Source: an uncultured Thermoplasmatales archaeon
Lineage (GTDB): Archaea > Thermoplasmatota > Thermoplasmata > Thermoplasmatales > GCA-001856825
Direction of reading: 5' to 3'
Assembly (NCBI GenBank): GCA_964391105.1
Contig: CAYMKC010000001.1
Span: 1-63,986, forward strand
DNA: 63,986 nt
Shown here piece by piece: positions 10,445 through 30,446 of this stretch; positions within the stretch are counted from its first letter, which is position 1, and each line of letters opens with the position of its first letter. Below the pieces are notes generated by a model. The model had not been told where the DNA came from. It saw only the letters and a list, made by a program, of their open reading frames with translations, and did no database searches. The position numbers and the translations under genes were made by a program.

Positions 10445-10494
10445 AATAAATAAAACTATGGAAGATTGTTTATTTGAGAACTAATTGTACCGTC

Positions 10495-11487
10495 ATGCCT
10501 ATGGACGTTTCAATGTTCAGATACGTTGAATCTCTTCCAGAAGAGAACATCAATCTTGCATCAAGTGCAATGAGAGGCATGAATCCCGAAGGGCTTGGCG
10601 GAGTGGAGATCGAAGAGCAGATAGCCAAACTCTATGGTGTCGAAAAGGAACAGGTTATCGTCACTCCTTCCGGCACGTTCGCGTCTTTCTTCACCCTCTA
10701 TCACCTGAGGAAGAAGATATCATCCCTCGTTACAATCACGCCAGAATATCCAGCATACTACTACCAGGCAAGGGAGATTGGCATCACTGCTACTCTGGAG
10801 AACAGGATCTCCTCCGAAGGAGTCGATCTTTCTCCTTGGGACGTAGACGAAAAGACCGCATACTTTATCAGCAACCCTAACAATCCCACTGGTCTATCGT
10901 GGAGCGACGAGAGCCTCAAGTCGATTGCGAGAGAGACGGAGGGCAACGAGTCGTACCTTGTCATAGACGACACGTTCTCATTTTTCAACGGGACTTTTCC
11001 AAAGCGGCTGGAGACGGGCAACACCATAATTCTGGGTTCTGTCTCGAAGTTCTTTGGCGAATCAGGAATCAAGATGGGATGGATAGTTGCAGGCAGACAG
11101 ACCATAGAAGAGATGAGGGAGCTCGTGGGGATAATTGTGCCAATGATATCGACGAGCGTGAAGAGGAGAGGAAGTTATCTCTTGAGCAACATCAACGTCT
11201 ACAGGGAATACAACAAGAAGAAGATAGACGAAAATTCAAAGATTTTGTTCGAACACCTGGACGAGTATCTGGTCGGATACAAGGGGACGATAGTTAACGC
11301 GATCTCTGTGGGAGGCGAATCGACTGGATTCTCCCTTTCACTTATGACAGAAGGCGTATCTACTGTTCCTGGCTATTATTTTGGTTCAGACTCACTGGTC
11401 AGAATCGGGATAGGTACGGAGGATCCTGAAAGGACAGAGAAGGGAGTCAAGACGATTGCCAACAAGGTATCCAACTGGAAGAGGTAG
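10495..11487 (+). CDS. Class I/II PLP-dependent aminotransferase
   Basis: NPNNPTG motif and the PLP-lysine motif SVSKFFGESGIKMGW. The ATG at 10495 is preferred over the TTG at 10474. Confidence 0.75.
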   Translation: MPMDVSMFRYVESLPEENINLASSAMRGMNPEGLGGVEIEEQIAKLYGVEKEQVIVTPSGTFASFFTLYHLRKKISSLVTITPEYPAYYYQAREIGITATLENRISSEGVDLSPWDVDEKTAYFISNPNNPTGLSWSDESLKSIARETEGNESYLVIDDTFSFFNGTFPKRLETGNTIILGSVSKFFGESGIKMGWIVAGRQTIEEMRELVGIIVPMISTSVKRRGSYLLSNINVYREYNKKKIDENSKILFEHLDEYLVGYKGTIVNAISVGGESTGFSLSLMTEGVSTVPGYYFGSDSLVRIGIGTEDPERTEKGVKTIANKVSNWKR

Positions 11488-12926
11488 TGATGGAGCCACT
11501 TGGAATTCTCTACGGTGACTTACACCCAACGGTCGTGAACTGCTCCGTCTCCGGTAAACTGAGGCAGGGAGATTACGTAAGACTGCAGCACCAGGAGGAT
11601 GGATGGGTTCTCGGCAAGGTCGATTCCATCGAAGCTAAGACAAATCTCTCCATAGAGAAATCGTACAAGATAATGGAAGGTAGCAACATAGAGATACAGC
11701 AGACGATTTCTGCCCAAATTGTAATAATAGGATACCTAGACCGCAAGGGGGTTTTGCAGTATCCGCGGACTCCTTTCTTGGCAGGCACCCCTGTGTATTT
11801 TGCAGACGATGAATTCATATCTGCTGTCCTTAAGGTCGGCGTGGGGAAGAAGGGACGCGCATATGTAGGCTTGATCTACGGACACAGCATTCCGTTCTCG
11901 ATCGACATCAATTCGATGGTCCAGAAACACATTTCTGTAATGGCAAAAACTGGTGGGGGAAAGAGCTACCTAACTGGCGTCATAATTGAAGAGCTTATAA
12001 AAAGCGATGTTACGGTGGTGGTCATAGACCCTCACGGCGAGTATGGCTCAATGAAGAGCAGAGCCTCAGACAACGAAGACATGAAGAGGTTCTCGATTCA
12101 CCCGGGTTCTTATGGAAGCAAAATCGTTACTTATTCACCGGAACACGGAGATGAAAAGCTCACATTCACACTTTCCCAAATCAACGTGAAGGAACTAGTG
12201 AGCATTATGAACCTCTCGGACCCAAAGTCCTATGTGCTCCCGTTGAGAAAGGCGATCGATGCGATTAGGTTGACAAGCAAGGACTATGATTTCGATGACG
12301 TCATAAAGGAGCTGAGGAGACAGGACGATTCCTCTCTCTCCCAGACGCTGGAGAAGGAATTGGTGTACCTGAAGTCACTTAACGTCCTCGGAAAGAGAGG
12401 TCTGAGGGTGGACGAACTCGTGGTCAAGGGCAAGGTATCTATAATCGAGATGAAGGGGCTGCCGCCCGACATGCAGGAACTGATAGTTCAGAGGCTCCTT
12501 TATGCCCTTTTTGAGGCAAGGAAAAAGGAGAGGATTCCCCCTCTACTCACGGTAGTCGAGGAGGCACACAATTTTGCACCGCAACAGGGCAAGGCTTTTT
12601 CATCCAAGATAATGAGAACAGTCGCATCTGAGGGCAGGAAGTTTGGATTCGGTCTACTGGTCGTATCTCAAAGACCTGCCAAGGTTGACAAGAACGTCCT
12701 GTCCCAGTGCGGAACGCAACTCATACTGAAGGTAACAAACCCCAACGATCTGAAGGCAATAGGGAACTCCGTGGAGGGACTGACCAATTCCTCGCTTGAC
12801 GAGATTCAGAGACTGCCCGTGGGGACCGCACTCGTTGCATCTCCCGAGCTGCCTATCCCATTATTCATCGAAGTACGACCCAGGGAGACGGATGACGGAG
12901 GGAAGAATGTGAGGGTGGTAAGATGA
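11487..12926 (+). CDS. HerA/FtsK-superfamily ATPase (HerA-like, DUF87-type)
   Basis: N-terminal HAS-barrel-like region. Walker A is AKTGGGKS and Walker B is VVVIDPHGEY. EEAHNF and VSQRP motifs are also present. Confidence 0.8.
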   Translation: MMEPLGILYGDLHPTVVNCSVSGKLRQGDYVRLQHQEDGWVLGKVDSIEAKTNLSIEKSYKIMEGSNIEIQQTISAQIVIIGYLDRKGVLQYPRTPFLAGTPVYFADDEFISAVLKVGVGKKGRAYVGLIYGHSIPFSIDINSMVQKHISVMAKTGGGKSYLTGVIIEELIKSDVTVVVIDPHGEYGSMKSRASDNEDMKRFSIHPGSYGSKIVTYSPEHGDEKLTFTLSQINVKELVSIMNLSDPKSYVLPLRKAIDAIRLTSKDYDFDDVIKELRRQDDSSLSQTLEKELVYLKSLNVLGKRGLRVDELVVKGKVSIIEMKGLPPDMQELIVQRLLYALFEARKKERIPPLLTVVEEAHNFAPQQGKAFSSKIMRTVASEGRKFGFGLLVVSQRPAKVDKNVLSQCGTQLILKVTNPNDLKAIGNSVEGLTNSSLDEIQRLPVGTALVASPELPIPLFIEVRPRETDDGGKNVRVVR

Positions 12927-13207
12927 CCATCCAGGAGAGGTGCAAGAGGTATCTTGATCTCACTAGAGATGCGCTTACATTGGTAAAGATCTCTCCATCG
13001 AAAGAAAGCTTCCTAAGCAGAGCGGCTACGGATTTTGTAGAGATGTGCAACAACTACCTCAAGGATGCCACTTTCTTCTACGAGAAAGGGGATTATGAAA
13101 ACTCCCTTGCGGCTAGCTCATACGCCTATGCCTGGTTAGACGCTGGTGTCAGACTAGGAATACTCAGCGCAACTGGGGATTACAAGAGATTTACTCAGTA
13201 CTCTTAG
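12923..13207 (+). CDS. Small helical protein (DUF357-like), translationally coupled to the HerA-like gene
   Basis: 94-aa ORF with an ATGA overlap onto the upstream stop. The family assignment is from memory only. Confidence 0.5.
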   Translation: MTIQERCKRYLDLTRDALTLVKISPSKESFLSRAATDFVEMCNNYLKDATFFYEKGDYENSLAASSYAYAWLDAGVRLGILSATGDYKRFTQYS

Positions 13208-13524
13208 CGGAATGTGCTATAGTCGTAGATTAGATCAATTAGCCGTTTGCTGGTCGAGTCGTCTATTATTCCCTCGTTCTTCTTGACCAGGACGAAGTCT
13301 CTCGCTTCCAATACTCCATTCTTGGCGGCCTTGGCATAAACAGATCCTATCACTCCGCCTCTCACGCTTTCCGGAAGATCCTTTAAACACTTTCCTAAAA
13401 GAAACCTAAATTCCTCGTTTTTTCTCATGTTGAGTTTTCTCAATTTCCTCTTCGTCTCAATGCCATTCTGGTTGGTAGTGGTTCTATTTACCTCCATCTG
13501 TGGTTTTGGATTAATCCGTAACAT
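13204..13524 (-). CDS. Hypothetical protein
   Basis: 106-aa ORF with a plausible shorter start at MRKNEEF. I recognise no family. Confidence 0.4.
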   Translation of the reverse strand: MLRINPKPQMEVNRTTTNQNGIETKRKLRKLNMRKNEEFRFLLGKCLKDLPESVRGGVIGSVYAKAAKNGVLEARDFVLVKKNEGIIDDSTSKRLIDLIYDYSTFR

Positions 13525-14007
13525 TTAAATATTTCGTTTGTGGAAAGGCCCAGAATATGGGCTCGGGACCGATTTCGAAGTGCCAATGCAATTTTATCAA
13601 CGATCTTACTTGACAAGTTATATATAGATTCTTCAGCTGGAGAAACAGACTTGCTAGTGAGTGTTGCAAAGAAAGTACTGGGAATTTTAGTCGCTTCGAC
13701 TGGGGGTTGTCCTTGTATTGCTTGGCATAAGACCTTCCATCTCTAACGGACCATATTTCGGTTGGGTCTATTATTATCAAGATCCTCAAGCTTGTACTGC
13801 TTGCCAAATGCAATATACATACGAAATTCTCATTCCTTTCCTGCTTGCAGGTTCCATCCTAGTGATCCTAGGACTCGCTTTCTTTCTCTCTCATTCTGGT
13901 AATACCAAGTAGTTCTTTCCCACAATCAGGTGATACCTTCAGCATTCGGTCGGAATCTCATCATCTTGGAGCGGTAAACGATTTATTGTACGTTAACTTA
14001 GGACTTC

Positions 14008-16383
14008 GTGGCTGTTGGAGTACAAATGAGACATATCTTTTACTCGAATGGGGCAGCACGTGCTTTTTCGGTTCTGAACGGAGTCCAAACGCAGAGCGTA
14101 ATGGACTTAGTTAAAGAGATGTCCTCCTCCGTAAACGTCAACATCATAACCGAAGAAGAGAGCTTCATCGCCCTACTAAAGTCCGGTGCATCGGTAGAAG
14201 ATTTAAACTCAATGAAGATCCTCCAAAATTTCCTCAAAGTCGTTGGAGAGACCTCAAAAGTCCACAAACTGGTTGCTGGAGACAGTTCGGAAAAGAAGAT
14301 CGAGAAGTACAGCGAGATCACGCTGAATTTCTATAAGATGATATCCGAGATGGGAAAGAGTGAGGCAGAAGACTTCGGTGAATTCGTTGGTTTATTCCCC
14401 CTGAAGCACGACTTGTCGGCAAATTATGTGAGCCATCTTCCATCTTTCCTTGCTCCATTCAATAAGTTGTTTACCCTATCAGAGGAATCAAGCAAAAAGG
14501 AGCCGAAAGCCCTGAAGATGAAGTTCCCTGATCTTTTTGCCGAGATAAGATGGCTATCGAGGGAAATCGCCTCGAAGAGAGGGCTAAGGGCAGTAGTCGT
14601 TCCGGACGATTACCTAGCTTCGGCGATTGCAAAGGAGCTGGAGCTGTATGGTATCAACCCGACAATTGCGTCCCCAGTATCGGAAGTGTTTATGAACGAT
14701 TCGCATCTCAATTTCGCCATATCCACTCTACGCTGCATAGATGAGGATTTCTCCTACGAAAGCGTAATCTCCATCCTTGAGAACCCATACTCCGGGATAG
14801 ATCGTTCTAGAATACGCACTATCAAGAAACAGTGCTATGAAAAGAACATAACGAGGGGAATCGGAGATTGGAAGAACCTGTTCCAGGAAATGAAGATCAA
14901 GGGGGATTTGCTACTTGACCTGGAATCTCTCTCGATCAATTTGGAACACGGGGATGGACTATCGGAACTAGTACTGTTTTTCAATAAGTACACGGGCGAA
15001 AGGAGCTTGATAGGTAAGCTGTTGGGGATTCTTGCATCATCATTTGAGGGAGAGGTCTTTGAACCTACTGAACTTATCAATGCCCTTGGCTCAATGAAGT
15101 ATCTGCCAAAGGTGAGTGTGGTAGGTGAGGCTGATGTTCTCATTGGCAAACCGCTTGACCTTCTTGGATTGCCCATTGACTTCCTCTACCTTGCTGGTCT
15201 GGATGCGGCTTCTTCGATCCGAGCCTTCCCGGAAGAGGCGAGAGACTTTCTTGAGAAAACGGGATTGGAAAATGGTTTTGAAAGACTGATGGAAAGGGCA
15301 TACAGTTCCCTCATTGAACATTCAGATGCAGTCATACTTACCTGTTCGAAGATGGACGACAAGCTTTCATACACGGAGTCAACTGCATTTTATGACGGAA
15401 TTCCAGGTGAGGAAAAGTACGTTCCAAGGGATTCGGTGTTCATACCACAGGACCCTATTGCGGAGTGGGAAACTGCGACCGAATACACAGTTTCAAATAG
15501 TTATTCACTCGAACACACCATCGTAAATGCGAGAATAGAGAAACCGATCTATCCTACGTTCATCGAAAACTATGCGGGGTGTCACTTCAAGGGTTTCGTC
15601 AACGGGATGCTCGGTGTTGATGAGATCGATCCTCCTCGGGAATTCCTCGATCCAAGAACGACCGGATCGATGACCCACAAGATACTCGAGAAGTTTTATT
15701 CAACAGACCTAACTCCTACAGGCTTCGGCAAACTTGCGGACTCTTTTGTCAGGGGTGAGATAGGCAAGGAGAGGTACGAGTCCCGGAAGGAGGCCCTGAA
15801 GTTCTACCGCGACAAGTACATACTAAACGGTAAATTGGAAAGATTCTTTAGAATGGATGTTGAACACACTCTCGAGCTTGGGAGGAAGACGATCCAAAAG
15901 GAGTTTCACTTCCCGATCTCCGACCAGCAAGTAGTGTACTATTTTGGAGACAAGAAAGTCAGCTTAGGGGGTTATGTTGATCGGGTTGATGACGAGAACG
16001 GCGGGTTGTGTGTCATTGACTACAAGAGCTCGCTCTATGGGTATCCCAAGAACGACCTGTGTGATGACAGACACTATAAGGTACAACTTTACTTTTACAA
16101 ACTTGGCGTAGAGGCTATCATGAAGAAAAAGGTCAGAGCAGCAGCTTACGTATCGTTCAGAGACATCAACGACGGCTTCAGCACGGCCGGATTCTTCAAC
16201 TCGATCCCAAACGAGGAGGCACAGGTCAAGAAGTGCAGGGAGATCATAGATCCCGTTCTCGAAGAGTTTGTGAGCGGTGACTGTGACCCGGTAGTCAAAG
16301 AGGGAGGTAGCCTGTGGAAGTGCGAGAATGAACTCTTCTGTCCTCTGCTGAGCGTGTGCAGGGTCCAGGAGAGGAGGTGGTGA
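14008..16383 (+). CDS. AddB/RexB-like protein with C-terminal Cas4/AddB-type PD-(D/E)XK nuclease and 4-Cys (Fe-S) pattern
   Basis: There is no N-terminal Walker A. AddB-like landmarks are AEIRWLSREIASKRGLRAVVVP and VLIGKPLDLLGLPIDFLYLAGLD. Nuclease motifs are YAGCHFKGF, GSMTHK, GGYVDRVD, VIDYKS, KVQLYFY and the terminal WKCENELFCPLLSVC. Confidence 0.8.
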   Translation: MAVGVQMRHIFYSNGAARAFSVLNGVQTQSVMDLVKEMSSSVNVNIITEEESFIALLKSGASVEDLNSMKILQNFLKVVGETSKVHKLVAGDSSEKKIEKYSEITLNFYKMISEMGKSEAEDFGEFVGLFPLKHDLSANYVSHLPSFLAPFNKLFTLSEESSKKEPKALKMKFPDLFAEIRWLSREIASKRGLRAVVVPDDYLASAIAKELELYGINPTIASPVSEVFMNDSHLNFAISTLRCIDEDFSYESVISILENPYSGIDRSRIRTIKKQCYEKNITRGIGDWKNLFQEMKIKGDLLLDLESLSINLEHGDGLSELVLFFNKYTGERSLIGKLLGILASSFEGEVFEPTELINALGSMKYLPKVSVVGEADVLIGKPLDLLGLPIDFLYLAGLDAASSIRAFPEEARDFLEKTGLENGFERLMERAYSSLIEHSDAVILTCSKMDDKLSYTESTAFYDGIPGEEKYVPRDSVFIPQDPIAEWETATEYTVSNSYSLEHTIVNARIEKPIYPTFIENYAGCHFKGFVNGMLGVDEIDPPREFLDPRTTGSMTHKILEKFYSTDLTPTGFGKLADSFVRGEIGKERYESRKEALKFYRDKYILNGKLERFFRMDVEHTLELGRKTIQKEFHFPISDQQVVYYFGDKKVSLGGYVDRVDDENGGLCVIDYKSSLYGYPKNDLCDDRHYKVQLYFYKLGVEAIMKKKVRAAAYVSFRDINDGFSTAGFFNSIPNEEAQVKKCREIIDPVLEEFVSGDCDPVVKEGGSLWKCENELFCPLLSVCRVQERRW

Positions 16384-16384
16384 A

Positions 16385-18724
16385 TTGACCGGTGATTTTG
16401 TGTCTGCGGTTCCTGGATCCGGGAAGACAGAAACTCTGATAAACAAGTGCTACGAGCTGTTGGAGGAACATGGGGTTGAGAACGTTGTTGCGATTACATT
16501 CACAGATAGAGCATCAGAAGAACTCATCAGCAGGCTCAAGAAAAGGGCACTCAAAGAGGGAGAGACCGATCTGATAAGACAGCTTCCGGCGTCCAACGTT
16601 GGGACCATTCACAATTTCTGTTCCAAAATAGTGAGGAAGTACGGAGCGGAGATAGGGATTCCGTGGTACTTCAGGGTAATGGATGAGCTGGAGTCATACA
16701 ACCTGCTGGAGAAAAGCATCAGGAGTTTCGTAATTAGGGTCAGAAATGAGAAGAGAGTCACCGATGCGGGGCTTATCCTCCAGAGGATCTTGGACGAATT
16801 CGAGACGGATGTCGAACAGGTAATAAAGGATTGCAGCGATATAATGGAATCTCAGAAGGGATACCTTGATTACATGATGTTTACGAACGGAAGCTTCTTC
16901 TCTAAGTATTCGGCAAAGACATTCGACGAAAGTGTAAGGAAGGAGGTCGCCTCCAGACTAAGGGTATCCATGTTACCAGGGCTCGTTTCGTTCCTTTCGT
17001 CCTTCGTAACAGAATACCAAGAAATAAAGCAGAAAGCTCGATTGATGGACTTCGACGATCTACTTCTCTATACCCTTAAGGTCATGGACGTGAAGGGAGA
17101 GGAGATTGCGAAAAAGTATAGTTACATACTGGTTGACGAGTTCCAGGACACCGACGAGTTACAGATCGCAATATTCGAAAAGTTCTGGAGGCACGGGGCA
17201 TCGTTCTTCGTGGTGGGGGACATAAATCAGAGCATTTATTCGTTCAGAGGAGCTCACCCCGGGGCACAGAAGAGATTCTCCAATCTCATCTCCAACCAGA
17301 CGACGCTAAGAGTAAACAGGAGAAGCGGAAAGAATCTCATCTCTTTCTACAACAGTTTCTTTCCTTCGCTCATGGAATACGAGACCATGGAGGCGTATTC
17401 GGATCGCGATGGTGGCGCGTACTGTCACCTTGATGAGGACAAGCTCCAGTCAGTCGCCGAAATCGCAAAGAAGAGGATACGGGAGGGGGAATTTCCAGGT
17501 AACATAGCGATTCTTAGTAGGATATCCTCGGACTTCTTCAACCTGAGGAGGTACCTCAAACAGGAGGGCGTGGAGAGCGTCTTGATATCGGGCGAATCGA
17601 TCCTGAAATCACAGGAGGGACTCGACGTCTCATCGCTTATCAGGTACCTGTCGGATCCAGGTGATCAAGTGGCACAGGTATCACTCCTATTCTCTCCCCT
17701 CTTTGGGATGAACGTGACAGATCTCGCGAAGTCTAAGGACAAGTTCGACGATATAATTGAATCTAGACTTGGCAAGTATGGGGTAGACCTGAAGAGGGAA
17801 AGGATAGACTTTCTGGTGAACAAGATCTTGCAAAGGGAGGGTTATGTCAGCAGGATCCTGGGAACGAGGGACGGAGAGGAGAGAGTGAGTAGGCTAAGCA
17901 GAGTACTGGAACTCCTCTCGGCCCACGTAACTGCTTACGGAGGAGATGGGCTCTCGCTCATAGAATGGTTAGAGAATGCAAGGGATAGCAAGGAGAGCGG
18001 ACCAATTGAGGATCTCCTAGAAGACAAACAGAGGGTAAAGATCATGACCATTCACCAGGCCAAAGGACTAGAGTTTGGAACGGTGATTGTCTATGACCTG
18101 AGGCCCGGGATGGACAGGGAAAAATACTACGCGGACGAATATGCTGGCATAGTAGCAAAACGGGACAAGGACTTTATCACTTCGCCGAGCAAGAAGATAA
18201 TTGGAAAGAGCGAAAAGCATGGATTCTCTCTGAACGAGGAGTCTAGAATAATGTACGTGGCATTCACCAGAGCGAGGGATGAACTCCACCTGGTCTTCTC
18301 GGACAGGGACTTGAAGGACGAGAGGAGCGCAAAAAAAGGAGATGACCTGATTTCGCTCTTTCAGAAAACCGTGGGGCTCTGGAGGGAGAGCAGAACGGAT
18401 GAGAGGAACGGAGCGCTTGCCAGGGTTGCAATGACCCCATCCAAATTGAGCAAATCTCCCCCCCTTGACCAAAGTAAACCAGTTCAGATTAGGACCGGTT
18501 TAACAAAAAGGGAAGAGATCAGGTTTGAGGTGCAGAGTGACGAAGACAATGAAAGGGCAATAATGCAGTTCGTCAAGGATAAGGGTGACAGGATAAAGGA
18601 GTTCAGGGTATTCTCAAACGGTTCCAGAGTTACGGTTTCTGAAAAGGGTTTAAAGATTTATGAAGATCTGCCTGCACAGAACAACTACTTCGTAAGCAAG
18701 GGCAGGATTGAATACGTACTCTAG
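16385..18724 (+). CDS. UvrD/Rep/AddA-like SF1 helicase without a nuclease domain
   Basis: Helicase motifs present: AVPGSGKTE (I), LVDEFQDTD (II), VVGDINQSIYSFRGA (III), MTIHQAKGLEFGTVIV (V) and MYVAFTRARDEL (VI). Start is TTG at 16385 or GTG at 16400. The gene begins 1 nt after the upstream stop. Confidence 0.85.
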   Translation: MTGDFVSAVPGSGKTETLINKCYELLEEHGVENVVAITFTDRASEELISRLKKRALKEGETDLIRQLPASNVGTIHNFCSKIVRKYGAEIGIPWYFRVMDELESYNLLEKSIRSFVIRVRNEKRVTDAGLILQRILDEFETDVEQVIKDCSDIMESQKGYLDYMMFTNGSFFSKYSAKTFDESVRKEVASRLRVSMLPGLVSFLSSFVTEYQEIKQKARLMDFDDLLLYTLKVMDVKGEEIAKKYSYILVDEFQDTDELQIAIFEKFWRHGASFFVVGDINQSIYSFRGAHPGAQKRFSNLISNQTTLRVNRRSGKNLISFYNSFFPSLMEYETMEAYSDRDGGAYCHLDEDKLQSVAEIAKKRIREGEFPGNIAILSRISSDFFNLRRYLKQEGVESVLISGESILKSQEGLDVSSLIRYLSDPGDQVAQVSLLFSPLFGMNVTDLAKSKDKFDDIIESRLGKYGVDLKRERIDFLVNKILQREGYVSRILGTRDGEERVSRLSRVLELLSAHVTAYGGDGLSLIEWLENARDSKESGPIEDLLEDKQRVKIMTIHQAKGLEFGTVIVYDLRPGMDREKYYADEYAGIVAKRDKDFITSPSKKIIGKSEKHGFSLNEESRIMYVAFTRARDELHLVFSDRDLKDERSAKKGDDLISLFQKTVGLWRESRTDERNGALARVAMTPSKLSKSPPLDQSKPVQIRTGLTKREEIRFEVQSDEDNERAIMQFVKDKGDRIKEFRVFSNGSRVTVSEKGLKIYEDLPAQNNYFVSKGRIEYVL

Positions 18725-18833
18725 CTGGATCTATCCTGCAAATGAACGATTCCCGAATTCATTTAACAGCGAATCTTCGGGAGATAGCGATCCAACCCAA
18801 GATGGTCAGAACCTCAACTTTCCTTGAGAGAGG

Positions 18834-18844
18834 TTTTATATTTT
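18834..18844 (+). promoter_or_regulatory. Candidate TATA box for tRNA-Glu
   Basis: The sequence ttttatatttt is centred about 23 nt upstream of the tRNA 5' end. Confidence 0.35.
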
Positions 18845-18860
18845 CATAGAATTAAGCTTA

Positions 18861-18935
18861 GCTCCGGTAGTGTAGACCGGCCAAGCATATGGGGCTCTCA
18901 ATCCCACGACCCGGGTCCAAATCCCGGCCGGAGCA
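18861..18935 (+). tRNA. tRNA-Glu (anticodon CUC)
   Basis: 75-nt cloverleaf. Acceptor stem is GCUCCGG/CCGGAGC with discriminator A. Anticodon stem is UGGGG/UCCCA with loop CUCUCAA. T arm is CCGGG-UCCAAAU-CCCGG. Confidence 0.9.
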
Positions 18936-19134
18936 CTTATTTTCATCTCGTTTCCTTTACCCGAGATTCCCGTAGCCACTTTTCTAGCGCGTTCCTTTTT
19001 GTGTTTGATTTAGGTAAATTCTTCCAAAGTACTATAAATTCTGTCCAACCGATTTACGGGTCGAAGCCATTCCGAGCGTCAACCCATTCAGTTATTTATA
19101 AGAAATCGAGTGGGAGGTATTAGATATTATCTGC

Positions 19135-19530
19135 TTGGAGAACAGCTCCGCACCTATTTCGTCAAATAGTGAGCAAATTCCGAGAAGGGTGGCTTCGCTC
19201 CTTTCAATTCCGGTAGTGATGCTGGTAGTATATGGCCCAGTTTCCTCTAGTAGTCAGAGCTCGTATTCCATCAGAGGGACCAATAAAGCTCTGTTGCCGC
19301 TGAAGGAAAACAGCGTACCTAACGGTTCGGTGCCTCCAATTTCCGTAACAATAAATGGATCCTCTACCTCCATCGTTGAGAATCAAAGTGATAATTTCAC
19401 ATCTCAGGTAGCAGGATGAGTGCCCCCGTATTCCTACCAGTGATACTGTATTGGCCGGATCGTAGCAGGTGCTACTAATTCAACCTACAACTTTACTAGG
19501 GCTTTCACAGGAAAATACGCCGTGACCTGA
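19135..19530 (+). pseudogene. Decayed ORF, probably a remnant of a secreted or surface protein
   Basis: A single reading frame stays protein-like across three in-frame stops: ...TSQVAG*VPPYSYQ*YCIGRIVAGATNSTYNFTRAFTGKYAVT*. It is rich in N-x-S/T sequons (NGS, NGSS, NST). Confidence 0.4.
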
Positions 19531-20099
19531 AAGTTGTGAACTTCCGAAGTAACTCCTATTCTCTAATTCCGTTACGATCTACTCGATGTCCCATCGCCAC
19601 AGTGCAATGACGGTCAAAAATAGAGGCGACTTCAAATAACATACTCACGAATAAGCCTTCTAAAGATTATGCCAATGTTAGTGGAGGTGAACCACCTTGC
19701 AGGTGCAAATGGTATCTTGATGAGGGGCTGGAGCCCCCCTGCAGAGAACTTGAGAGTCAAACCTTCTCTGATCGAGTACTGCCCCCCCTCGTATTAAACT
19801 GCCTTTATTATCAGGCAAGGAACAAGGCTATGGACGACGGCCACAACGGTGACAACATTCCACTGTTGATTCGGGAAATAATTGAGTCAAGTATCGAGCC
19901 ATTTTTTTACAATGGCAGACCTCGCAAAAACACAATAAATTATCAATTTCAAATCTACCATTAACTTCGCACAGAAGGAAGGCTAAATTTTGATCCTATA
20001 TGCAGGACTCCAAATGACGGTCGTGGACTATCAATCAAATTTAAGACAAGCAGCAGAACATCAATGGTTCGTTTCTCCGTAGCCTCTTGGGGCAAGCAT

Positions 20100-20834
20100 T
20101 CAAGATTTCGTCGATTCGGAGACTATGTGTTCTACTTTTCCAATGAAGGCCTCCCATCGTCTGCGGTTTTCCTTAGTCTGTTTTGTCCCTATTCTGGACA
20201 TGGCGTCTTCAAAGAGTTTATCGGAAGATTTCTTCTCTCTTAGTTTACGGGAGATAAAAGAGAGCTTTTCTTTCAGTGTTTCAGAGTGGAAACTTCGGAA
20301 TAGCGTGATGACTTCCTCGATTTCAAATGGAGCATCCCATATTGCATAAAGGTCGAGAAGATCCTGGTCTCGTCCCGCTTGAAGCTTGAGTACCCATATT
20401 GCTGAGGGTCTTGCAACATTCACTAATGAAGAAGTAGCTCCTCGCAGTGTATGGAGTTTCATTGTTCTGCTATCCTTTCTTATCCACTCTTCTGGAACAT
20501 CGATCTTGGCTTTCCTATCCCTCACAGAGCCAATCAAGAGATCGATCGTTGCCCCATCCTTCTGGTAACGAAGGGCATTAAATTCAAAGTCCGGAAGATT
20601 GGGAAGGTTCCTTCCTTCCAGCCCATATCCTTGTTCGTGAAGAAATGTTTCAAAGGTGGATTGGAGGGAGACGGGGATCACGATGTCTGCATCTTTTGAG
20701 AACCTCGGAGGTCCATAGGCGGCTATTGCATATCCACCTATCAGCGTACCTCCCGTTTTCCACGGCCAAGCATCTAGAAATTGCAGAATCTTTCTTTCCC
20801 TTTCTGTTAGTCTCTGTGTCTGATCAATACTCAA
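20100..20834 (-). CDS. AbiEii/AbiGii-like nucleotidyltransferase (type IV toxin-antitoxin / abortive-infection toxin family)
   Basis: Pol-beta-type NTase motif TLIGGYAIAAYGPPRFSKDADIVIP (GGxA...R.S.D.D). At 244 aa the size fits the family. It overlaps the upstream wHTH gene by 11 nt. Confidence 0.7.
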   Translation of the reverse strand: MSIDQTQRLTERERKILQFLDAWPWKTGGTLIGGYAIAAYGPPRFSKDADIVIPVSLQSTFETFLHEQGYGLEGRNLPNLPDFEFNALRYQKDGATIDLLIGSVRDRKAKIDVPEEWIRKDSRTMKLHTLRGATSSLVNVARPSAIWVLKLQAGRDQDLLDLYAIWDAPFEIEEVITLFRSFHSETLKEKLSFISRKLREKKSSDKLFEDAMSRIGTKQTKENRRRWEAFIGKVEHIVSESTKS

Positions 20835-21387
20835 TTAGATCCTCCGCCTCCGCATAAAGTCCTGGATGATCTCGAATGAGATTCACCACTTCGTCTCTAG
20901 GGATGACTGGTTCTCCGTTTATCAGGACATAGCTTAGATTGTCCGTTCCCCTCAGGTCAACATAACTTCCAACTCTCTTCTTCCCTATGTAAGAAACGGC
21001 GTGCTTCTTCAAGTATTCCTTCCACCTCTCCATATCTGCAATCCTGACGAGTAGGTGGTAAACCATAAGGTAGGAGCTTGGCGAAACTACGTATCCGCCA
21101 TCAGTCCACACTTCCACAGCCGTGCTGTCATTCCACGCCTTTTCGAAAGGCGCACGATCTATAACGTTTCTCACTCTCCTCCATTCTGTTGACCTTGAGT
21201 CTAATTTATTGATGGGTCGGTCAATGACGTACTTGCCCCTACCAGTCCTCCTGACCAACCCCCTCATTTTTAGCTCGGAGAGGAGTCTGTTGGGCCTGGA
21301 GTTCCCAGTGATTCTAGAGACATCACTTAAGCTGAACTCCTTCCTTCCAAATTCCATCTTAAGCACGTCAAAATATTTTGTTGACAC
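20824..21387 (-). CDS. AbiEi-like winged-helix antitoxin/regulator
   Basis: N-terminal segment FSLSDVSRITGNSRPNRLLSELKMRGLVRRTGRGKYVI resembles the AbiEi wHTH ending in the RGxY motif. It is paired with the NTase gene. Confidence 0.65.
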   Translation of the reverse strand: MSTKYFDVLKMEFGRKEFSLSDVSRITGNSRPNRLLSELKMRGLVRRTGRGKYVIDRPINKLDSRSTEWRRVRNVIDRAPFEKAWNDSTAVEVWTDGGYVVSPSSYLMVYHLLVRIADMERWKEYLKKHAVSYIGKKRVGSYVDLRGTDNLSYVLINGEPVIPRDEVVNLIRDHPGLYAEAEDLIEY

Positions 21388-22400
21388 CTATACTAATAAT
21401 CGGATATTATATTTAAATTTAACTATACCATGTGGCATACGTCTTCTATCAATTCAGCCTCTAAAAACTACATAGCACCTAATGTCTGAGCTGCGCTTAA
21501 TCCTAAACACTTCACTTTTTACGAAATATGCCGAGGTCTATCTTCAGTTTTTCCACAAAATTGCCTGCCTTCTTTGTGATTTCACTCATGATCTAGTTGT
21601 AATAACCTCACAGAACGAGTTTTAGAATGTCAGATGGATTGTATTATGACCTTACCGCTCCATCGATGAGCGTGGAATCTGTAAACCCAGATTTTCAAGA
21701 TCGAGTGAATCAACAAGTGAATCGAAGAGTCTTGAATGGTTGTATTACTTAGATGTTTCAATGAGGCTAATCGAGGAATATCTACCTCCCAAAATCCAAC
21801 TCGTTTTGAGTCCTTACCCGATAGGTTCTTGAATAATATTGAAGTCCTCCAAATATGAAGATAGAAGGCGATGCCATTCCTGACACAAGGCGCTACTTTG
21901 GGTACAAGCAGTATTACATTGTCACATCAGAAGGAAGGAGATTATACGTTATCATTCCGGACTATCTCCTCAAAGACAGGCACTGCAACCTTAGGATGGC
22001 TCTAGAATGGGAAGAGACTCCTCAGTAGTTCACCAAGCCGCTCTGTTGGCTCTACAGTCTCCACTAACAATTATGGCTATAGGTTCCTCAGGTACCCAAC
22101 CGACATCATCCACTATAATGATACAGGTCATAGAACTCTCCGGATGTAACAAAGGTGGAGGGGGATATGCGCAATACTCATTCCAGTTCTGGCCAGGTTC
22201 GTTGCAGCCACCGTGATCCTCGTGGGTATTTTCATCTTGGTCCCAGTTCTAAAGAAAAATATCAAAAGAACCACTTCATAAAGACCTCTGAAAAGCAAAG
22301 GAGACGATATTTGGATAAATGGGGGCATTAATACCAACTTACGGAAGAGGATTAAACCTGATTCGACTCCTCTTCCACGAAATACAGACAGCCACTACTT

Positions 22401-22586
22401 TCAGAAAAAGCTCTTCTTTATAGCTTTATCGACCTTCTCTTTTACGTCGGGAGGTATCTCGTTCATGTTGTGTGCGCCCTTTGCGTGATTCACTATGAGG
22501 GGCATCAGTTCCTCCTTAGTTGAGGCCTTGGTTTCAAAGCCACAGTTCATGCCAATATCAGAGCACTTGAAACTGTACTTAGCCAT
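22401..22586 (-). CDS. DUF1059-family small protein
   Basis: 61 aa. MAKYSFKCSDIGMNCGFE...HAKGAHNM matches the DUF1059 pattern. Confidence 0.8.
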   Translation of the reverse strand: MAKYSFKCSDIGMNCGFETKASTKEELMPLIVNHAKGAHNMNEIPPDVKEKVDKAIKKSFF

Positions 22587-22692
22587 GGCAATACAATTTA
22601 ACCTTCAATAAAAATGTTGCGAATTGCTAAAAAATCGAGTTACCACTCAACTTTCCCATAAATCCTTTTTACGTGGTGGGCATTAGACACCA

Positions 22693-23202
22693 ATGGAAAG
22701 ACCTTCCTGGGATGAGTATTTCATGAGAATGGCCTTTATGGCTGCCACCAGATCCAACTGTGTTAGAAGGAAAGTCGGTGCGGTGATCGTGAAGGAGAAG
22801 AGGATTATGGCGACAGGCTACAACGGTCCACCCAGAGGTGCACTCCACTGTGACGAGGTCGGTTGCCTTAGGGACCAGCTGAAGGTCAGAGCCGGTGAAA
22901 GGAGAGAACTTTGCCGGGGACTCCACGCAGAGCAGAATGCAATCATACAGGCGGCATACAACGGTACAGCAATCAATGGTAGCATCATCTACGTTACGAC
23001 ACACCCCTGCTCTGATTGTTCCAAGATGATAATCAACGCTGGAATCAGGGAAATAATATTCTCCGAGGGGTATCCAGACGAGCTCTCAGAACTCATGCTG
23101 ATAGAAAGCGACATCGAGACCAGGCAGTACGATGTTTCCTCGGATTTCAAGAACATACTGTTCGGTCCAAACGTCGAACTGATACACAAATCGAGGGACT
23201 AG
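22693..23202 (+). CDS. dCMP (deoxycytidylate) deaminase
   Basis: Cytidine/dCMP deaminase zinc motifs HAEQNAI and PCSDCSKMI. Confidence 0.85.
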
Positions 23203-23257: not shown

Positions 23258-24190
23258 CTAGAAGGTGTCCAGTTTGTCCTTTATCTGAAGGTACCCGTCC
23301 TCTATTCTCTTTGTCTGTTCAGCAGAGAGTCTCCATCCATTCGATTGAAGGTTTATTGTTGCCTGATCCCTGTTCTTGGCGCCGGGGATCGGTATGACAT
23401 TTCCCCTCGAAATCAACCAGTTCAGTGCAAGCTGGACCACGGAGTGACCTGTCTCGAGTGAGATCTCCCTGAGCACAGAAAGGAAGGTAGCTATACTGCT
23501 GATGTTCGGTTCTGAAAACAACTTGTTGCTCTTCCTCACGTCAGTTGGTTCCAGGTTGGCGTGATCGTACTTGAAAGTCAGTAGACCCTGAGCGAGAGGT
23601 GAATAAGCGATTACGCTTATCTTCTCCTTGTTGAGGTATGGTAGCATCTCTTCCTCAATTTCCCTCTGCAGTATGTTGTATCTGACCTGGTTAGAAACTA
23701 TGTCCATGTTTGAAAGGTAAGACCTTGCCTCTTCGATCTGGCAAACGCTGAAATTAGAGAGCCCTATGTACCTTATCTTCCCGTCGTTCGCCATTTTTTC
23801 CAGAGTCTTCATGGTCTGCTTGATCGAGGTGTAAATGTCTGGCCAGTGTAGCTGATAGAGATCTACGTAGTTCGTGTTCAACCTCTTGAGGCTGCCATCA
23901 AGTGCCCTCTCTAGATATTCAGGTTTCAGGTGACCTCCTGATGCCTTGGTTGCAATGATAATCTCGTCCCTGATGTCTTTTATGACCTCGCCTATTACAG
24001 ATTCGGAGTGACCATCACCGTATACCTCAGCCGTATCAATGAAATTCAGTCCCATTTCTATAGAAGTAAGAATTGCATTCTTGACGTCGGAATCGACTAT
24101 CTTTCCCCAGCCCTTGGCACCTGCCTGCCAAGCACCGAGACCAATAACAGAAACTTTTAGATCAGATTTTCCTAGATTTGTATATTCCAT
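23258..24190 (-). CDS. Aldo/keto reductase
   Basis: AKR fold landmarks: FIDTAEVYGDGHSE, DLYQLHWPD and IGLSNF. Confidence 0.85.
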   Translation of the reverse strand: MEYTNLGKSDLKVSVIGLGAWQAGAKGWGKIVDSDVKNAILTSIEMGLNFIDTAEVYGDGHSESVIGEVIKDIRDEIIIATKASGGHLKPEYLERALDGSLKRLNTNYVDLYQLHWPDIYTSIKQTMKTLEKMANDGKIRYIGLSNFSVCQIEEARSYLSNMDIVSNQVRYNILQREIEEEMLPYLNKEKISVIAYSPLAQGLLTFKYDHANLEPTDVRKSNKLFSEPNISSIATFLSVLREISLETGHSVVQLALNWLISRGNVIPIPGAKNRDQATINLQSNGWRLSAEQTKRIEDGYLQIKDKLDTF

Positions 24191-24243
24191 GTTCCGACAT
24201 AATAGGGTTTATTATTAATTTTCGTTTTAAGGTTAAATTTCAA

Positions 24244-25335
24244 ATGAGAATCATAAAAAATTCAAGCGTCCTTTCACAGGATTACATCCCCGAAACCATC
24301 ATAGGAAGAGAGGAACAGATCGCGAGGCTCAGAGATCTGATCAGGGGCAGCGATGTCTCATCCGCTTTCATAGTGACCGGAAATCCGGGGACGGGGAAGA
24401 CGTTGATTGGGAAGTACCTGCTCAAGGAAATGAAGGAATTCAAGACCGCATATGTGAACTGTTACATCAACCAAACAGACAGGGCAATAGTCTCAACGAT
24501 TCTCAACAACCCCAACATACGGCTCCCAGAGATAGGCAGCACTAGATCCGAATCCCTCTCGAGTCTCCTGTTCAGGGAGTTGCCAGAGCGGAACAACCTG
24601 ATAGTGCTTGACGAGACTCAATCCCTTAAGAGGACTCATCCCCAGATAGTTTATGCTCTTTCAAGAAGCAAGGAGCTTGGTGGCCCCGAGGTGAAACTTG
24701 TAATGTTCTCGATGGAAGAACCGGAAGTGTATCTTGACAAGAGCACTCTGTCGGGATTGGGAAGATACAACAGATTCGCCCTGAAGGAGTACGACGCGGA
24801 AGAGCTCTACAGGATCATATCTGCTAGAGCGGAAGGGGCCTTCTATGAAGGCTCATACTCCGAATTGGCCCTCCACAGAATATCAGAGCTTGTCGAGGAG
24901 AATGGAAGTGCCAGGATTGCCCTGGAGTTGTTGAAAAATTCCGCACTCTTCGCGGAATCTGGGAATGTGTTCCTGGACGAGGAAGCCGTACTGGAAGCGT
25001 ACAGGGACTTCTCGCCTCCGTTGGAGGAGAGTTCTCTCATAAGCATGGAAGATGAAGAGATCGAGTTACTCAAGTCCCTGCTGGAAGGAGTCAAAGAAAG
25101 GCGCAGTTTCAGAACTTCAGATCTAAGGAGCATCGAGAGCGGTATTAGCGATTCGAAGATTTACAAATTCCTCAAAACGATGGAGACATCGGGCCTCGTA
25201 AAGAAGAGCAAGATAGGAAAGGGATATTCCGGAGGTGTCGAGAACGAATACATCCTCAGAGTGTCGCCACAGATTCTTCTCAGCAAGTTAGAGCTGATGG
25301 AGAAAACACAAGAGTCCTATAGAAAGGAGACGTGA
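24244..25335 (+). CDS. cdc6: Orc1/Cdc6 replication initiator paralogue 1
   Basis: LSQDYIPETIIGREEQI, Walker A GNPGTGKT, Walker B IVLDETQ, and a C-terminal winged helix. The start is set at MRIIKNS; the ORF-track start at 24178 would overlap the divergent AKR gene. Confidence 0.85.
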   Translation: MRIIKNSSVLSQDYIPETIIGREEQIARLRDLIRGSDVSSAFIVTGNPGTGKTLIGKYLLKEMKEFKTAYVNCYINQTDRAIVSTILNNPNIRLPEIGSTRSESLSSLLFRELPERNNLIVLDETQSLKRTHPQIVYALSRSKELGGPEVKLVMFSMEEPEVYLDKSTLSGLGRYNRFALKEYDAEELYRIISARAEGAFYEGSYSELALHRISELVEENGSARIALELLKNSALFAESGNVFLDEEAVLEAYRDFSPPLEESSLISMEDEEIELLKSLLEGVKERRSFRTSDLRSIESGISDSKIYKFLKTMETSGLVKKSKIGKGYSGGVENEYILRVSPQILLSKLELMEKTQESYRKET

Positions 25336-29189: not shown

Positions 29190-30446
29190 ATGGTAAATTC
29201 ATCCAAAAACTTGTTTGAAAAATTCACTAGTACATCTCTGATAGTTAAAGGGCAGAGACAAGCACTCGAGCCTGGTTTCATTCCGGACAGGTTGCCACAC
29301 CGCGAGGAGGAAGCGGAACAGCTTGCAGAAATACTGTCCCCATCCCTGAGGAATTTCAAGCCTTCTAATGTTATTATCTTTGGCAAACCAGGAGTAGGTA
29401 AGACTAGCGTCGTCAAGTTTGTCGAGAGCGAAATTTCCAAAGCGATCCAATCTAGACTGGATACAAAGATCAAGATCATAGACGTGAACTGCGGCGTTGT
29501 AGACAGCCCGTACGGAGTACTCTTGTCGGTGGGAGATGGGTTGCTTGAATCGTGGGAAGAAAAGCTCCCTTTTACGGGCTGGCCGCTGGATAAACTGTAC
29601 AACACCGTTCTGGAGAAGATAAAGTCCTTCGCGGGCATCGCAATAATAGTCCTGGACGAGATAGACAAGCTGGTGAAAAAGAGTGGTGACTCCGTCCTGT
29701 ACCAGCTTCTCAGGATAAACGAGGTAACGAATGAGGGAAGGGTCAGCATACTCGGAATAAGCAACGATCTGCGGTTCACAGAATACCTAGACCCGAGGGT
29801 CAAGAGCAGGTTGATCGAGGAGACTATGGTCTACAACCCGTACAACGCATCTCAGATCTATGACATTCTGAGAGACAGATCACTATATGCTGGGATAGCC
29901 GACTCAATTGACGAGTCCGCAATGAAGACGTGCGCCGCTCTTGCTGCTCAAGAGCATGGAGACGCCAGGAGAGCGATCGACATGCTCAGGATAGCTGTGG
30001 AGATTACGGAGAAAGACAAAGAAAAGAGGATAGTGGACGACACGATTTACGAGGCGAAGAAGAAGCTGGAGAGAGATGTTGTGGTGGAAACGGTATCAAC
30101 CCTCCCGCTTCACAGCAAACTCGTCCTGTTTTCCATATCTCTCATAGACGAGATCAAGAACGGTGGGAGCTCCACGATGGGCGAATTCTACGACCTCTAC
30201 GAAAAGATCGCGGACAGGATGAGCATGACCGGGCTCACGCAGAGGAGAGTAGCCGACATCATAGGTGAACTGACGAACCTCGGACTGATAGACTCCAGGG
30301 TCCAGAGTTTCGGTAGGTACGGAAGGACAACGACCGCATCTCTAAACTACGGTTCGTCCAAGATAAAGGATATACTTCTCAGCGATGAGATTCTGGCACA
30401 GCTCAGGGACGTTAAACCACTTCAGAAGTCGTTGCCGGATTCATAA
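29190..30446 (+). CDS. cdc6: Orc1/Cdc6 replication initiator paralogue 2
   Basis: FIPDRLPHREEE, Walker A GKPGVGKTS, Walker B IVLDEIDKL, GDARRAIDMLR, and a C-terminal winged helix. Confidence 0.9.
   Translation: MVNSSKNLFEKFTSTSLIVKGQRQALEPGFIPDRLPHREEEAEQLAEILSPSLRNFKPSNVIIFGKPGVGKTSVVKFVESEISKAIQSRLDTKIKIIDVNCGVVDSPYGVLLSVGDGLLESWEEKLPFTGWPLDKLYNTVLEKIKSFAGIAIIVLDEIDKLVKKSGDSVLYQLLRINEVTNEGRVSILGISNDLRFTEYLDPRVKSRLIEETMVYNPYNASQIYDILRDRSLYAGIADSIDESAMKTCAALAAQEHGDARRAIDMLRIAVEITEKDKEKRIVDDTIYEAKKKLERDVVVETVSTLPLHSKLVLFSISLIDEIKNGGSSTMGEFYDLYEKIADRMSMTGLTQRRVADIIGELTNLGLIDSRVQSFGRYGRTTTASLNYGSSKIKDILLSDEILAQLRDVKPLQKSLPDS

Follow-up and report, generated by a model that had tools for sequence, protein, structure and literature searches.

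A predicted AddAB-like helicase-nuclease gene pair with a single nuclease in Thermoplasmatales archaea

Two adjacent genes of an uncultured Thermoplasmatales archaeon, referred to here as open reading frames (ORFs) 1 and 2, occupy positions 14008 to 18724 of the 63,986-nucleotide (nt) stretch of DNA that was analyzed as a whole (contig CAYMKC010000001.1; "the window"). A first reading of the sequence, hereafter the original prediction, had described them as an AddAB-like module in an archaeon, consisting of an AddB-like protein with an iron-sulfur (Fe-S)-type nuclease and of a helicase devoid of nuclease, and this core proposal was supported by profile comparisons, by fold comparisons, and by gene order. 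AddAB, RecBCD, and AdnAB are described as bacterial double-strand-break machines, and archaeal resection is ascribed to Mre11-Rad50 and HerA-NurA (PMC6452273, PMC9960219, PMC12977600). Elsewhere in the window there are genes for PolD DP2, for two proteins of the Orc1/Cdc6 type, for a diphthamide synthase, and for Nre and FtsZ, and every related contig bears the title Thermoplasmata or Thermoplasmatales archaeon, the acid-mine-drainage "I-plasma" among them. The window is thus archaeal, on the basis of its archaeal genes (PolD DP2, Orc1/Cdc6, diphthamide synthase, and Nre) and of the titles of the related contigs. The features of the pair and of its borders are listed below (aa, amino acids; SF1, superfamily 1).

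14008-16383, + strand: ORF1, 791 aa from a GTG start, predicted AddB-like subunit
14008-14436, + strand: ORF1 aa 1-143, lineage-specific N-terminal region with no sequence similarity to the AddB N-terminal domain
14437-15522, + strand: ORF1 aa 144-505, predicted inactivated SF1-helicase-like scaffold resembling the Chi-scanning/3'-channel region of AddB (hhalign, Foldseek)
15556-16362, + strand: ORF1 aa 517-785, RecB/AddB/Cas4-type PD-(D/E)XK nuclease domain (Pfam PDDEXK_1, E 4e-21)
15580-15582, + strand: codon of C525, upstream cysteine of a putative 4Fe-4S staple (motif ENYAGCHFKGF), invariant and aligned with the "Y..C..F" of AddB-type proteins
16321-16359, + strand: cysteine triad C772-X5-C778-X5-C784, putative downstream ligands of the cluster, invariant
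16373-16377, + strand: Shine-Dalgarno-like GGAGG in the final codons of ORF1, 7 nt 5' of the ORF2 TTG, read from the sequence
16385-18724, + strand: ORF2, 779 aa from a TTG start, predicted AddA/RecB-type SF1A helicase subunit without a nuclease domain
16391-18373, + strand: ORF2 aa 3-663, helicase core (hhalign against an AddA-type profile, probability 100%, E 1e-95)
16406-16429, + strand: ORF2 aa 8-15, Walker A motif AVPGSGKT (motif search)
17135-17155, + strand: ORF2 aa 251-257, motif II DEFQDTD (motif search)
ORF2 aa 277-290 and aa 624-630: motif III and motif VI, respectively
18539-18721, + strand: ORF2 aa 719-779, small alpha+beta orphan domain (AlphaFold2 block with a predicted local distance difference test score, pLDDT, of ~80-90)
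13525-14007, + strand: upstream intergenic region of 483 nt, presumed to hold the promoter of the pair
18861-18936, + strand: tRNA-Glu(CTC), conserved downstream boundary of the pair, outside the system

The coordinates of the two large co-directional ORFs and the 1-nt spacer announced between them were borne out from the sequence, the junction reading ...AGGAGGTGG-TGA-A-TTG. An alternative in-frame ATG of ORF1 at 14026 would give a 785-aa form, which is the one on record (P0001). The GGAGG falls in the invariant ...QERRW terminus of ORF1, and this embedded Shine-Dalgarno-like sequence suggests that the translation of ORF2 may be coupled to that of ORF1. Neither ORF is a chance reading frame, since both are intact and adjacent at every related locus and have low ratios of nonsynonymous to synonymous substitution rates (dN/dS).

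The homology of ORF1 to AddB could only be recognized by profile-profile and fold comparison, because a direct phmmer search of the PDB with ORF1 returned nothing at E ≤ 1. With hhalign, the ORF1 family profile (A2, reaching down to 27% identity) matched a profile of 15 AddB-type proteins with a probability of 99.93% (E 1.7e-35) over 609 columns corresponding to ORF1 aa 144-789. The nuclease-free scaffold (aa 1-505) matched the AddB profile as well (probability 95.5%, E 1.6e-8, aa 144-467) and weakly resembled the 2A region of AddA (E 2.9e-5). The AlphaFold2 model of ORF1 (pLDDT 80.9; predicted template modelling score, pTM, 0.62) was compared to the PDB with Foldseek, and its five best matches were all B. 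subtilis AddB chain B (E 6.5e-21 to 7.4e-19; query template modelling score, TMq, 0.45), followed by AddA, AdnA, UvrD, and RecC. The AddB/RexB-like scaffold proposed for ORF1 was thus recovered both by profile homology reaching beyond the nuclease and by the ranking of the folds. The closest named relatives outside the ORF1 family are bacterial proteins annotated as "ATP-dependent helicase/DNAse subunit B". A minority of the matches, 900-1100 aa in length, also align with ORF1 residues ~150-500, and NCBIfam calls these AddB-type; P0275, which aligns with the N-terminal part of ORF1, reaches 849 bits on addB_Gpos.

A motif search of ORF1 found no [AG]x4GK[ST] (Walker A) sequence, as expected from the original prediction, and no helicase motifs. 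A Walker A is present in only a subset of AddB proteins and is thus optional (PMC3064778). In the AlphaFold2 model, a beta-loop-helix at aa 8-24 (HIFYSxGAAR), in which H9, F11, and S13 are invariant, may represent a degenerate P-loop remnant. Judged by its profile and predicted fold, ORF1 is a true, although very distant and shortened, AddB homologue, in which an apparently inactivated helicase-like scaffold precedes a RecB-type nuclease predicted to be catalytically intact.

All of the nuclease motifs that had been quoted for ORF1 were found in the stated order, namely YAGCHFKGF (aa 522), GSMTHK (553), GGYVDRVD (654), VIDYKS (669), QLYFY (693), and CENELFCPLLSVC (772). Residues G553/H557, E632, D658, D671/K673, and Q693/Y697 were invariant in the ORF1 family down to 27% identity, and the catalytic residues align with invariant columns of the AddB-type set. 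The 1+3 cysteine pattern described earlier, formed by C525 and by C772, C778, and C784, was equally invariant down to this level of identity and likewise falls on invariant AddB-type columns, so that neither the D/E/K residues nor the cysteines showed the lack of conservation that would have spoken against the original prediction. The CX5CX5C spacing had been pointed out as a departure from the CX2CX5C of AddB and Cas4; it proved to lie at the end of a graded natural series. Among 149 relatives, CX2CX5C was found in 90, CX3CX5C in 35, and CX4CX5C in three, including P0137, itself a member of the ORF1 family, and CX5CX5C occurs in the ORF1 family. The first spacer thus ranges from X2 to X5 among relatives of ORF1, and the second is nearly always X5. 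An Fe-S staple held by these four cysteines is plausible from the alignment.

ORF2 was confirmed to carry the full set of SF1A UvrD motifs, with a Walker A close to its N-terminus. Motifs Ia, II, III, IV, and VI were present and invariant in 20 relatives, and Pfam detected UvrD-helicase (E 1.1e-50) and UvrD_C (E 2.2e-23) domains, but no nuclease domain. The hhalign match extended from residue 3 to ~663 of ORF2 and covered columns 22-805 of the 1133 columns of the AddA profile; ~330 columns, comprising the linker and the nuclease, were left unmatched. In the AlphaFold2 model (pLDDT 78.5), a disordered linker (aa ~687-718) joins the helicase core to the small domain at aa 719-779. With Foldseek, the core was closer to RecB (TMq 0.60-0.66) and AddA (0.59) than to UvrD, PcrA, and Rep (0.44-0.48). 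A profile of the tail (aa 645-779) gave no credible match in the PDB or Pfam, the best (E 0.015) being an unrelated coiled coil, and its invariant residues are N722, I726, R741, T750, G755, E760, and G773. A degenerate nuclease remnant in this tail was ruled out, as it contains no conserved D...(D/E)xK residues. Pfam, the profile alignment, and the tail searches therefore agree with the earlier statement that ORF2 has no C-terminal RecB-type nuclease and that the pair holds a single one. The assignment of ORF2 as an AddA/UvrD-type helicase could be narrowed, since AddA and RecB are its nearest neighbors by profile and by fold: on these comparisons, ORF2 is an AddA/RecB-type SF1A helicase.

The relatives of ORF2 form a Thermoplasmatales family down to 36% identity, below which the scores drop from 449 to 179 bits. 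Below this drop are 1000-1350-aa proteins combining UvrD and PDDEXK_1 domains (PF12705 is present in 68 of the 82 outgroup matches listed), many of which are annotated as helicase/nuclease subunit A. One of the nearest outgroups (P0057, on a 2.4-Mb contig) lies directly after, and overlaps, a gene for a 1008-aa AddB with ADDB_N and PDDEXK_1 domains, and the order at this locus is B then A, as in ORF1-ORF2. Five AddA-like matches of ~1000-1050 aa had no precomputed PF12705. Four of them contain a sub-threshold PDDEXK_1; P0054 and P0134 had no PDDEXK_1 at E ≤ 0.01. As most of these ~1020-aa outgroup proteins keep a sub-threshold nuclease domain, the nuclease-less AddA architecture of ORF2 remains unusual.

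An exhaustive hmmsearch of 1.84 billion representative sequences with the ORF1 family profile showed that the full-length family comprises three 50%-identity clusters (that of the query, P0136, and P0137). Their named members are all labelled as Thermoplasmatales or Thermoplasmata metagenome-assembled genomes (MAGs), and the remainder are metagenomic; the next match (E 1.5e-14) covers the nuclease only. A word-index homologue search with the widened ORF1 alignment A2 yielded only the same 15 proteins. A scan of GTDB genomes with two peptide patterns recovered the close clade only, and is not a measure of absence elsewhere in Thermoplasmatales. No relatives of the pair were found in the IMG/VR viral contigs or in the PLSDB plasmids. 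Existing annotations read "PD-(D/E)XK nuclease family protein" and "UvrD-helicase domain-containing protein", and in the open-access subset of the literature we found no account of this pair or of any archaeal AddAB-like pair.

Short AddB-like proteins were also observed in bacteria: two loci (L021, 874-6586, and L022, 2971-7919) encode proteins of 790 and 804 aa in which the first ~300 residues of canonical AddB are missing, and these precede long AddA-like partners (>846 and >1116 aa). Such N-terminally truncated variants are apparently undescribed and may be intermediates towards the archaeal form. As short AddB-like proteins also occur in bacteria, the unusual feature of the archaeal pair is its nuclease-less A subunit.

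The pair belongs to a conserved block of genes in the order aminotransferase, HerA-like ATPase, DUF357, small reverse-strand ORF (orf106), ORF1, ORF2, and tRNA-Glu. This block was kept in all 15 of the GTDB species-level genomes found; three lineages that are more divergent (L016/L017, L019, and L020, a Yellowstone contig) have it as well, and the spacing between ORF1 and ORF2 was 0-1 nt at all of these loci. Their co-occurrence, the lack of which would have undermined the proposal, was thus observed at every related locus, the slot being identical in all 18 Thermoplasmatales genomes or contigs covered. ORF1 and ORF2 diverged in parallel across the loci, and their lengths ranged from 783 to 799 aa and from 769 to 800 aa, respectively, in all genomes. 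When compared to the closest relative, dN/dS was 0.067 for ORF1 and 0.064 for ORF2, and values were similar for the neighboring genes (Cdc6, 0.060; DUF357, 0.068; orf106, 0.066); the pair is under strong purifying selection.

The original prediction had placed the pair between a 480-bp gap and a tRNA gene followed by an AbiE-bearing island. All of these elements are present, the gap measuring 483 nt, but the pair itself is not linked to the island. Variable DNA was found only 3' of tRNA-Glu, where the distance to the next conserved gene varies from 0.67 to 3.8 kb; a match to AbiEii (E 2.1e-5) and a weak match to AbiEi (E 0.002) lie at 20100-21387, and the 2.4-kb segment that bears them (19734-22101) is missing from the closest relative. 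The mobile context implied at first was not borne out, as the pair occupies a fixed position 5' of the conserved tRNA-Glu throughout the lineage. Within this lineage, the pair is a core feature passed on vertically, and it does not belong to the AbiE island. A vertically inherited, already characterized core operon of all related archaea would have spoken against the proposal; the vertical inheritance held, but the pair is uncharacterized and its family is confined to three protein clusters from Thermoplasmatales MAGs and metagenomes. Any horizontal acquisition must be ancient, since the pair is fixed in position across the whole lineage and away from the mobile context.

Among known systems, AddAB/RexAB of Firmicutes and Proteobacteria (B. 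subtilis AddAB, PDB 3U44/4CEI) was the best profile and structural match, and its genes are likewise ordered addB-addA. In AddAB, as predicted for the archaeal pair, an inactivated SF1-helicase-like scaffold and a C-terminal RecB-family nuclease, the latter with 1+3 cysteines on its two sides, make up the B subunit, and an SF1A helicase of RecB/AddA-type fold makes up the A subunit. However, the archaeal pair has one nuclease and not two, its A subunit carrying none; ORF1 is ~350 aa shorter than AddB, its N-terminal 143 aa are unrecognizable, and it has neither ADDB_N nor Walker A; the cysteines are spaced CX5CX5C instead of CX2CX5C; and in ORF2 the Q-motif segment is missing and the C-terminal domain is an orphan. 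The scores are far under the curated family cut-offs, and the host is an archaeon. Since these cut-offs are not reached, ADDB_N is missing, and neither the AddA nuclease nor the dual-nuclease, Chi-regulated logic of AddAB is found in a pair with one nuclease domain, we rate the pair as AddAB-like but distinct.

As in RecBCD of E. coli, there would be a single nuclease active site per complex; the RecB core was the top fold match for ORF2, and both RecC and ORF1 are inactivated helicase scaffolds (TMq of RecC with Foldseek, 0.36-0.40). The archaeal arrangement is nevertheless the mirror image: in RecBCD the RecB motor bears the nuclease and RecC is dead, whereas here the scaffold bears the nuclease and the motor none. 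RecB, moreover, is without an Fe-S staple (PMC3321194). An identity with RecBCD was rejected, with ORF2 devoid of nuclease, the ORF1 nuclease intact, and no RecD-like second motor adjoining the pair. The mycobacterial AdnAB is a heterodimer of subunits with a UvrD-like fold and RecB-type nucleases, and AdnA and AdnB were among the fold matches. Both Adn subunits, however, are motor-like and bear a nuclease, but ORF1 has no helicase motifs and ORF2 no nuclease, and an identity with AdnAB was also rejected.

The architecture of the nuclease, in which the catalytic core follows one cysteine and precedes three others, is shared with the Fe-S-stapled RecB-family 5'-strand nucleases Dna2 and Cas4 (PMC3378879). 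In Dna2, however, the nuclease is fused to an SF1B 5'->3' helicase, and Cas4 is a protein of ~200 aa found in CRISPR adaptation modules. ORF1, with 791 aa, scored 19.8 bits against the TIGR00372 cut-off of 65 in its domain only and was not retained as a Cas4, and the flanks that were examined showed no cas genes. Gabija, in which the UvrD-like helicase GajB is paired with GajA, an OLD-family ATPase/TOPRIM nuclease, was also set aside, as the GajB matches are to generic UvrD, the neighbors are an aminotransferase, HerA, DUF357, and a tRNA, and there is no GajA. Fusions of UvrD and Cas4-like proteins have been described in bacteria and mesophilic archaea, and unfused operons of the two in Clostridiales (Hudaiberdiev et al. 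2017, PMC5704561). These systems resemble the pair in that they associate a UvrD-family helicase with a pfam12705 Fe-S-type nuclease; unlike in the pair, their nuclease modules are Cas4-sized, fused to UvrD or next to it, and the fusions lie mostly in restriction-modification/defense contexts, in contrast to the 791-aa AddB-type scaffold and the housekeeping-like locus seen here. An archaeal AddB-type scaffold protein was not described in that study. Finally, the outcome predicted for the pair, resection of the 5' strand and a 3' tail for RadA, would be that of HerA-NurA with Mre11-Rad50, but a hexameric FtsK/HerA translocase and a NurA dimer are unrelated in fold and mechanism to an SF1A motor and a RecB-type nuclease.

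Taken together, we consider it fairly probable that ORF1 and ORF2 are the two subunits of a minimal AddAB-type helicase-nuclease, anciently derived from Bacteria and now fixed in I-plasma-related Thermoplasmatales; an ancient acquisition of the pair from Bacteria is probable. From homology, we infer that the two proteins form a complex with an Fe-S cluster, and we deduce in the same way its strand polarity, its product with a 3' tail, and its role in the cell. In AddAB, AddA bears the single 3'->5' motor (PMC3064778), the AddA nuclease acts on the 3' strand and the AddB nuclease on the 5' strand, the DNA end is bound by the nuclease and Fe-S region of AddB, and the 3' channel is lined by AddB's inactivated helicase domain (PMC3321194). 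By analogy, the archaeal heterodimer would grip a duplex DNA end via the nuclease domain of ORF1, which would be stabilized by a 4Fe-4S cluster on C525, C772, C778, and C784. ORF2, as the only motor, would move 3'->5' along the 3'-ended strand and unwind the duplex; the emerging 5'-ended strand would be cut by the ORF1 nuclease, and the 3' strand would run over the inactivated helicase-like scaffold of ORF1. Because the AddA-type nuclease is missing, the 3' strand would be spared, and a constitutive 3' single-stranded tail would be produced with no need for a Chi-type switch. This tail would then serve as a substrate for RadA-mediated recombinational repair. As a second role, the pair could degrade linear foreign DNA, like RecBCD and AddAB.

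The pair is thus best read as a single-motor, single-nuclease AddAB variant that would degrade only the 5' strand at DNA ends. What is new is this archaeal variant, the AddAB kind itself being already known. With an AddAB-type pair fixed by vertical descent and under purifying selection, this archaeal lineage clearly departs from the division of end-resection machinery between bacteria and archaea, and the pair would represent a natural minimal AddAB with one motor and one nuclease, the latter on the scaffold subunit, a mirror image of RecBC. The Chi-free 3' tails predicted from the known strand assignment of AddA and AddB bear on why bacteria need dual nucleases and Chi control, and the pair prompts one to ask how RadA takes over from a resection enzyme of bacterial type. 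The finding is solid but moderate, as it concerns a narrow uncultured lineage, its function is deduced from homology, and gene transfer from bacteria to Thermoplasmatales is common.

Several observations weigh against this assignment. On the side of ORF1, Pfam reported neither ADDB_N nor a P-loop match, the first 143 aa matched nothing in sequence comparison, and aa 1-165 alone showed no similarity to the AddB profile with hhalign (E 0.19). Its NCBIfam matches (addB_alphas, TIGR03623, cas4, and addA) were confined to aa ~520-785 and far under the cut-offs, with 24 bits against 486.5 for addB_alphas and 36 bits against 299.6 for TIGR03623, and the AddB equivalog cut-offs (TIGR02773, TIGR02786, and TIGR02774) were not reached. 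ORF2 lacks the ~20-residue N-terminal Q-motif segment of its AddA relatives, scored 176 bits on addA_Gpos (TIGR02785) against a cut-off of 707.65 and 124 bits on TIGR02784 against 860.75, and has in the place of the AddA/RecB nuclease an unexplained orphan domain of ~60 aa. Within the block, the pair also diverges fastest: at the deepest split, ORF1 and ORF2 are 29% and 34% identical, respectively, versus 72% for HerA and 50% for the aminotransferase, and identities across the block comparison are 29-38% for the pair versus 72-76% for HerA, as an arms-race role would likewise predict. Lastly, throughout the lineage the gene of a HerA-like ATPase is found 1 kb upstream of the pair, so that a resection system may already be present.

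This divergence would also be expected if the pair were mainly an anti-virus/anti-plasmid helicase-nuclease that shreds invader DNA at free ends or nicks, repair being at most a by-product, a role that we regard as possible but rather unlikely. Such a role would resemble that of UvrD-Cas4-like proteins from defense contexts, or the activity of RecBCD against phages. The pair out-diverges all flanking genes, an AbiE toxin-antitoxin pair lies ~1.4 kb downstream, and combinations of UvrD with a pfam12705 nuclease have been tied to defense islands (PMC5704561); in PADLOC, ORF2 matched many models of GajB, the Gabija helicase, and ORF1 matched Cas4 models. However, these matches are to generic UvrD and Cas4 domains, and no GajA or other partner gene is present. 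The pair resides at one fixed locus amid housekeeping genes in every member of the lineage, the AbiE segment lies beyond the conserved tRNA-Glu and is absent from the closest relative, and the viral-contig and plasmid searches found no relatives. A dN/dS of ~0.065, like that of Cdc6, DUF357, and orf106, gives no sign of diversifying selection at the gene level, and the nearest homologues are canonical addB-addA repair operons. The defense module put forward as an alternative in the original prediction thus received no specific support from the PADLOC, viral-contig, or plasmid searches.

It is also conceivable that the two proteins are mere neighbors, ORF2 acting as a UvrD/PcrA-like repair or replication-accessory helicase and ORF1 as an independent exonuclease of the Cas4/RecB type whose large N-terminus is non-catalytic. 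Indeed, the nuclease domain is all that the standard models of Pfam and NCBIfam see in ORF1, and the models of PcrA, UvrD, and Rep also give scores for ORF2. Such separate action appears quite improbable in view of the 0-1 nt spacing maintained at all loci down to 27-34% identity and of the Shine-Dalgarno-like sequence in the ORF1 tail. In addition, the fold and best matches of ORF2 are RecB/AddA and not UvrD/PcrA, the gene order is identical to that of real addB-addA operons, and the scaffold of ORF1 has the AddB-type inactivated helicase fold, which is known to pair with AddA (PMC3321194). A decaying relic of a transferred bacterial addAB operon, with one nuclease lost and no present function, would account for the high divergence and for the loss of the AddA nuclease, the Q-motif segment, and a recognizable AddB N-terminal domain, but is hardly tenable given that both ORFs are intact and of near-constant length in all genomes, that dN/dS is ~0.065, and that the catalytic, cysteine, and helicase motifs are all invariant.

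Returning to an AddAB-type enzyme active in end resection, a more specific scenario, which we offer tentatively and consider doubtful, is that a bacterial addBA operon was remodeled beside herA into a Chi-independent resection machine that supplements or replaces the canonical archaeal nuclease and feeds RadA, the orphan domain of ORF2 being an adaptor to RadA, SSB/RPA, or PCNA.

Other features of the region were also recorded. The aminotransferase, the HerA-like ATPase (479 aa, with DUF87, HerA_C, and HAS-barrel domains), and DUF357 form an overlapping co-directional trio at 10474-13207, which all related genomes have next to the pair, even those across the deepest split. Many archaea keep mre11-rad50-nurA beside herA; no NurA, Mre11, or Rad50 was detected among the window ORFs scanned, and none adjoins the HerA trio. 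The small basic ORF of 106 aa (13204-13524, - strand), divergent to ORF1, was found in all relatives (54-94% identity) and has no match among Pfam families; it may encode a regulator, or else be conserved for reasons unrelated to the pair.

The 483-nt region upstream of ORF1 contains short, unconserved ORFs only and a TATA-like TTTATT at 13982-13987, 21-26 nt 5' of the ORF1 GTG. It is poorly conserved (69-74% identity to L001, the contig CAYMEF010000007.1), and is long here and in L001 when compared to the ~160-215 nt of most relatives. The tRNA was the sole match of an Rfam scan of 12800-22800, with no family in the gap. A scan for sigma-70 promoters and intrinsic terminators gave 11 sites versus 6.3 expected, these bacterial models being uninformative for an archaeon.

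Downstream, the region 3' of tRNA-Glu(CTC) (18937-22692) is a variable integration hot spot, and the Yellowstone contig carries a second tRNA-Glu ~0.8 kb downstream (L020, 12793-13707), as expected of an integrated element. A patch of ~1.1 kb at 10450-11550, which includes the aminotransferase gene (10474-11487), is 100% identical in nucleotide sequence to L001, with flanks that are ~82-93% identical. This patch reflects either a very recent recombination or gene conversion between lineages or a chimera of the MAG or assembly.

Two Orc1/Cdc6-family genes (24178-25335 and 29190-30446) are found 5-10 kb downstream of the pair and no more than 6 kb apart, and a replication origin may be located near them. 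A TrmB-like winged helix is present in the first of them, which is a divergent paralogue (identity among relatives, 51-76%). Nre, a little-studied archaeal protein associated with DNA repair, is encoded 12 kb upstream of the pair (927-2156, - strand; Nre_N and Nre_C, E 6e-86).

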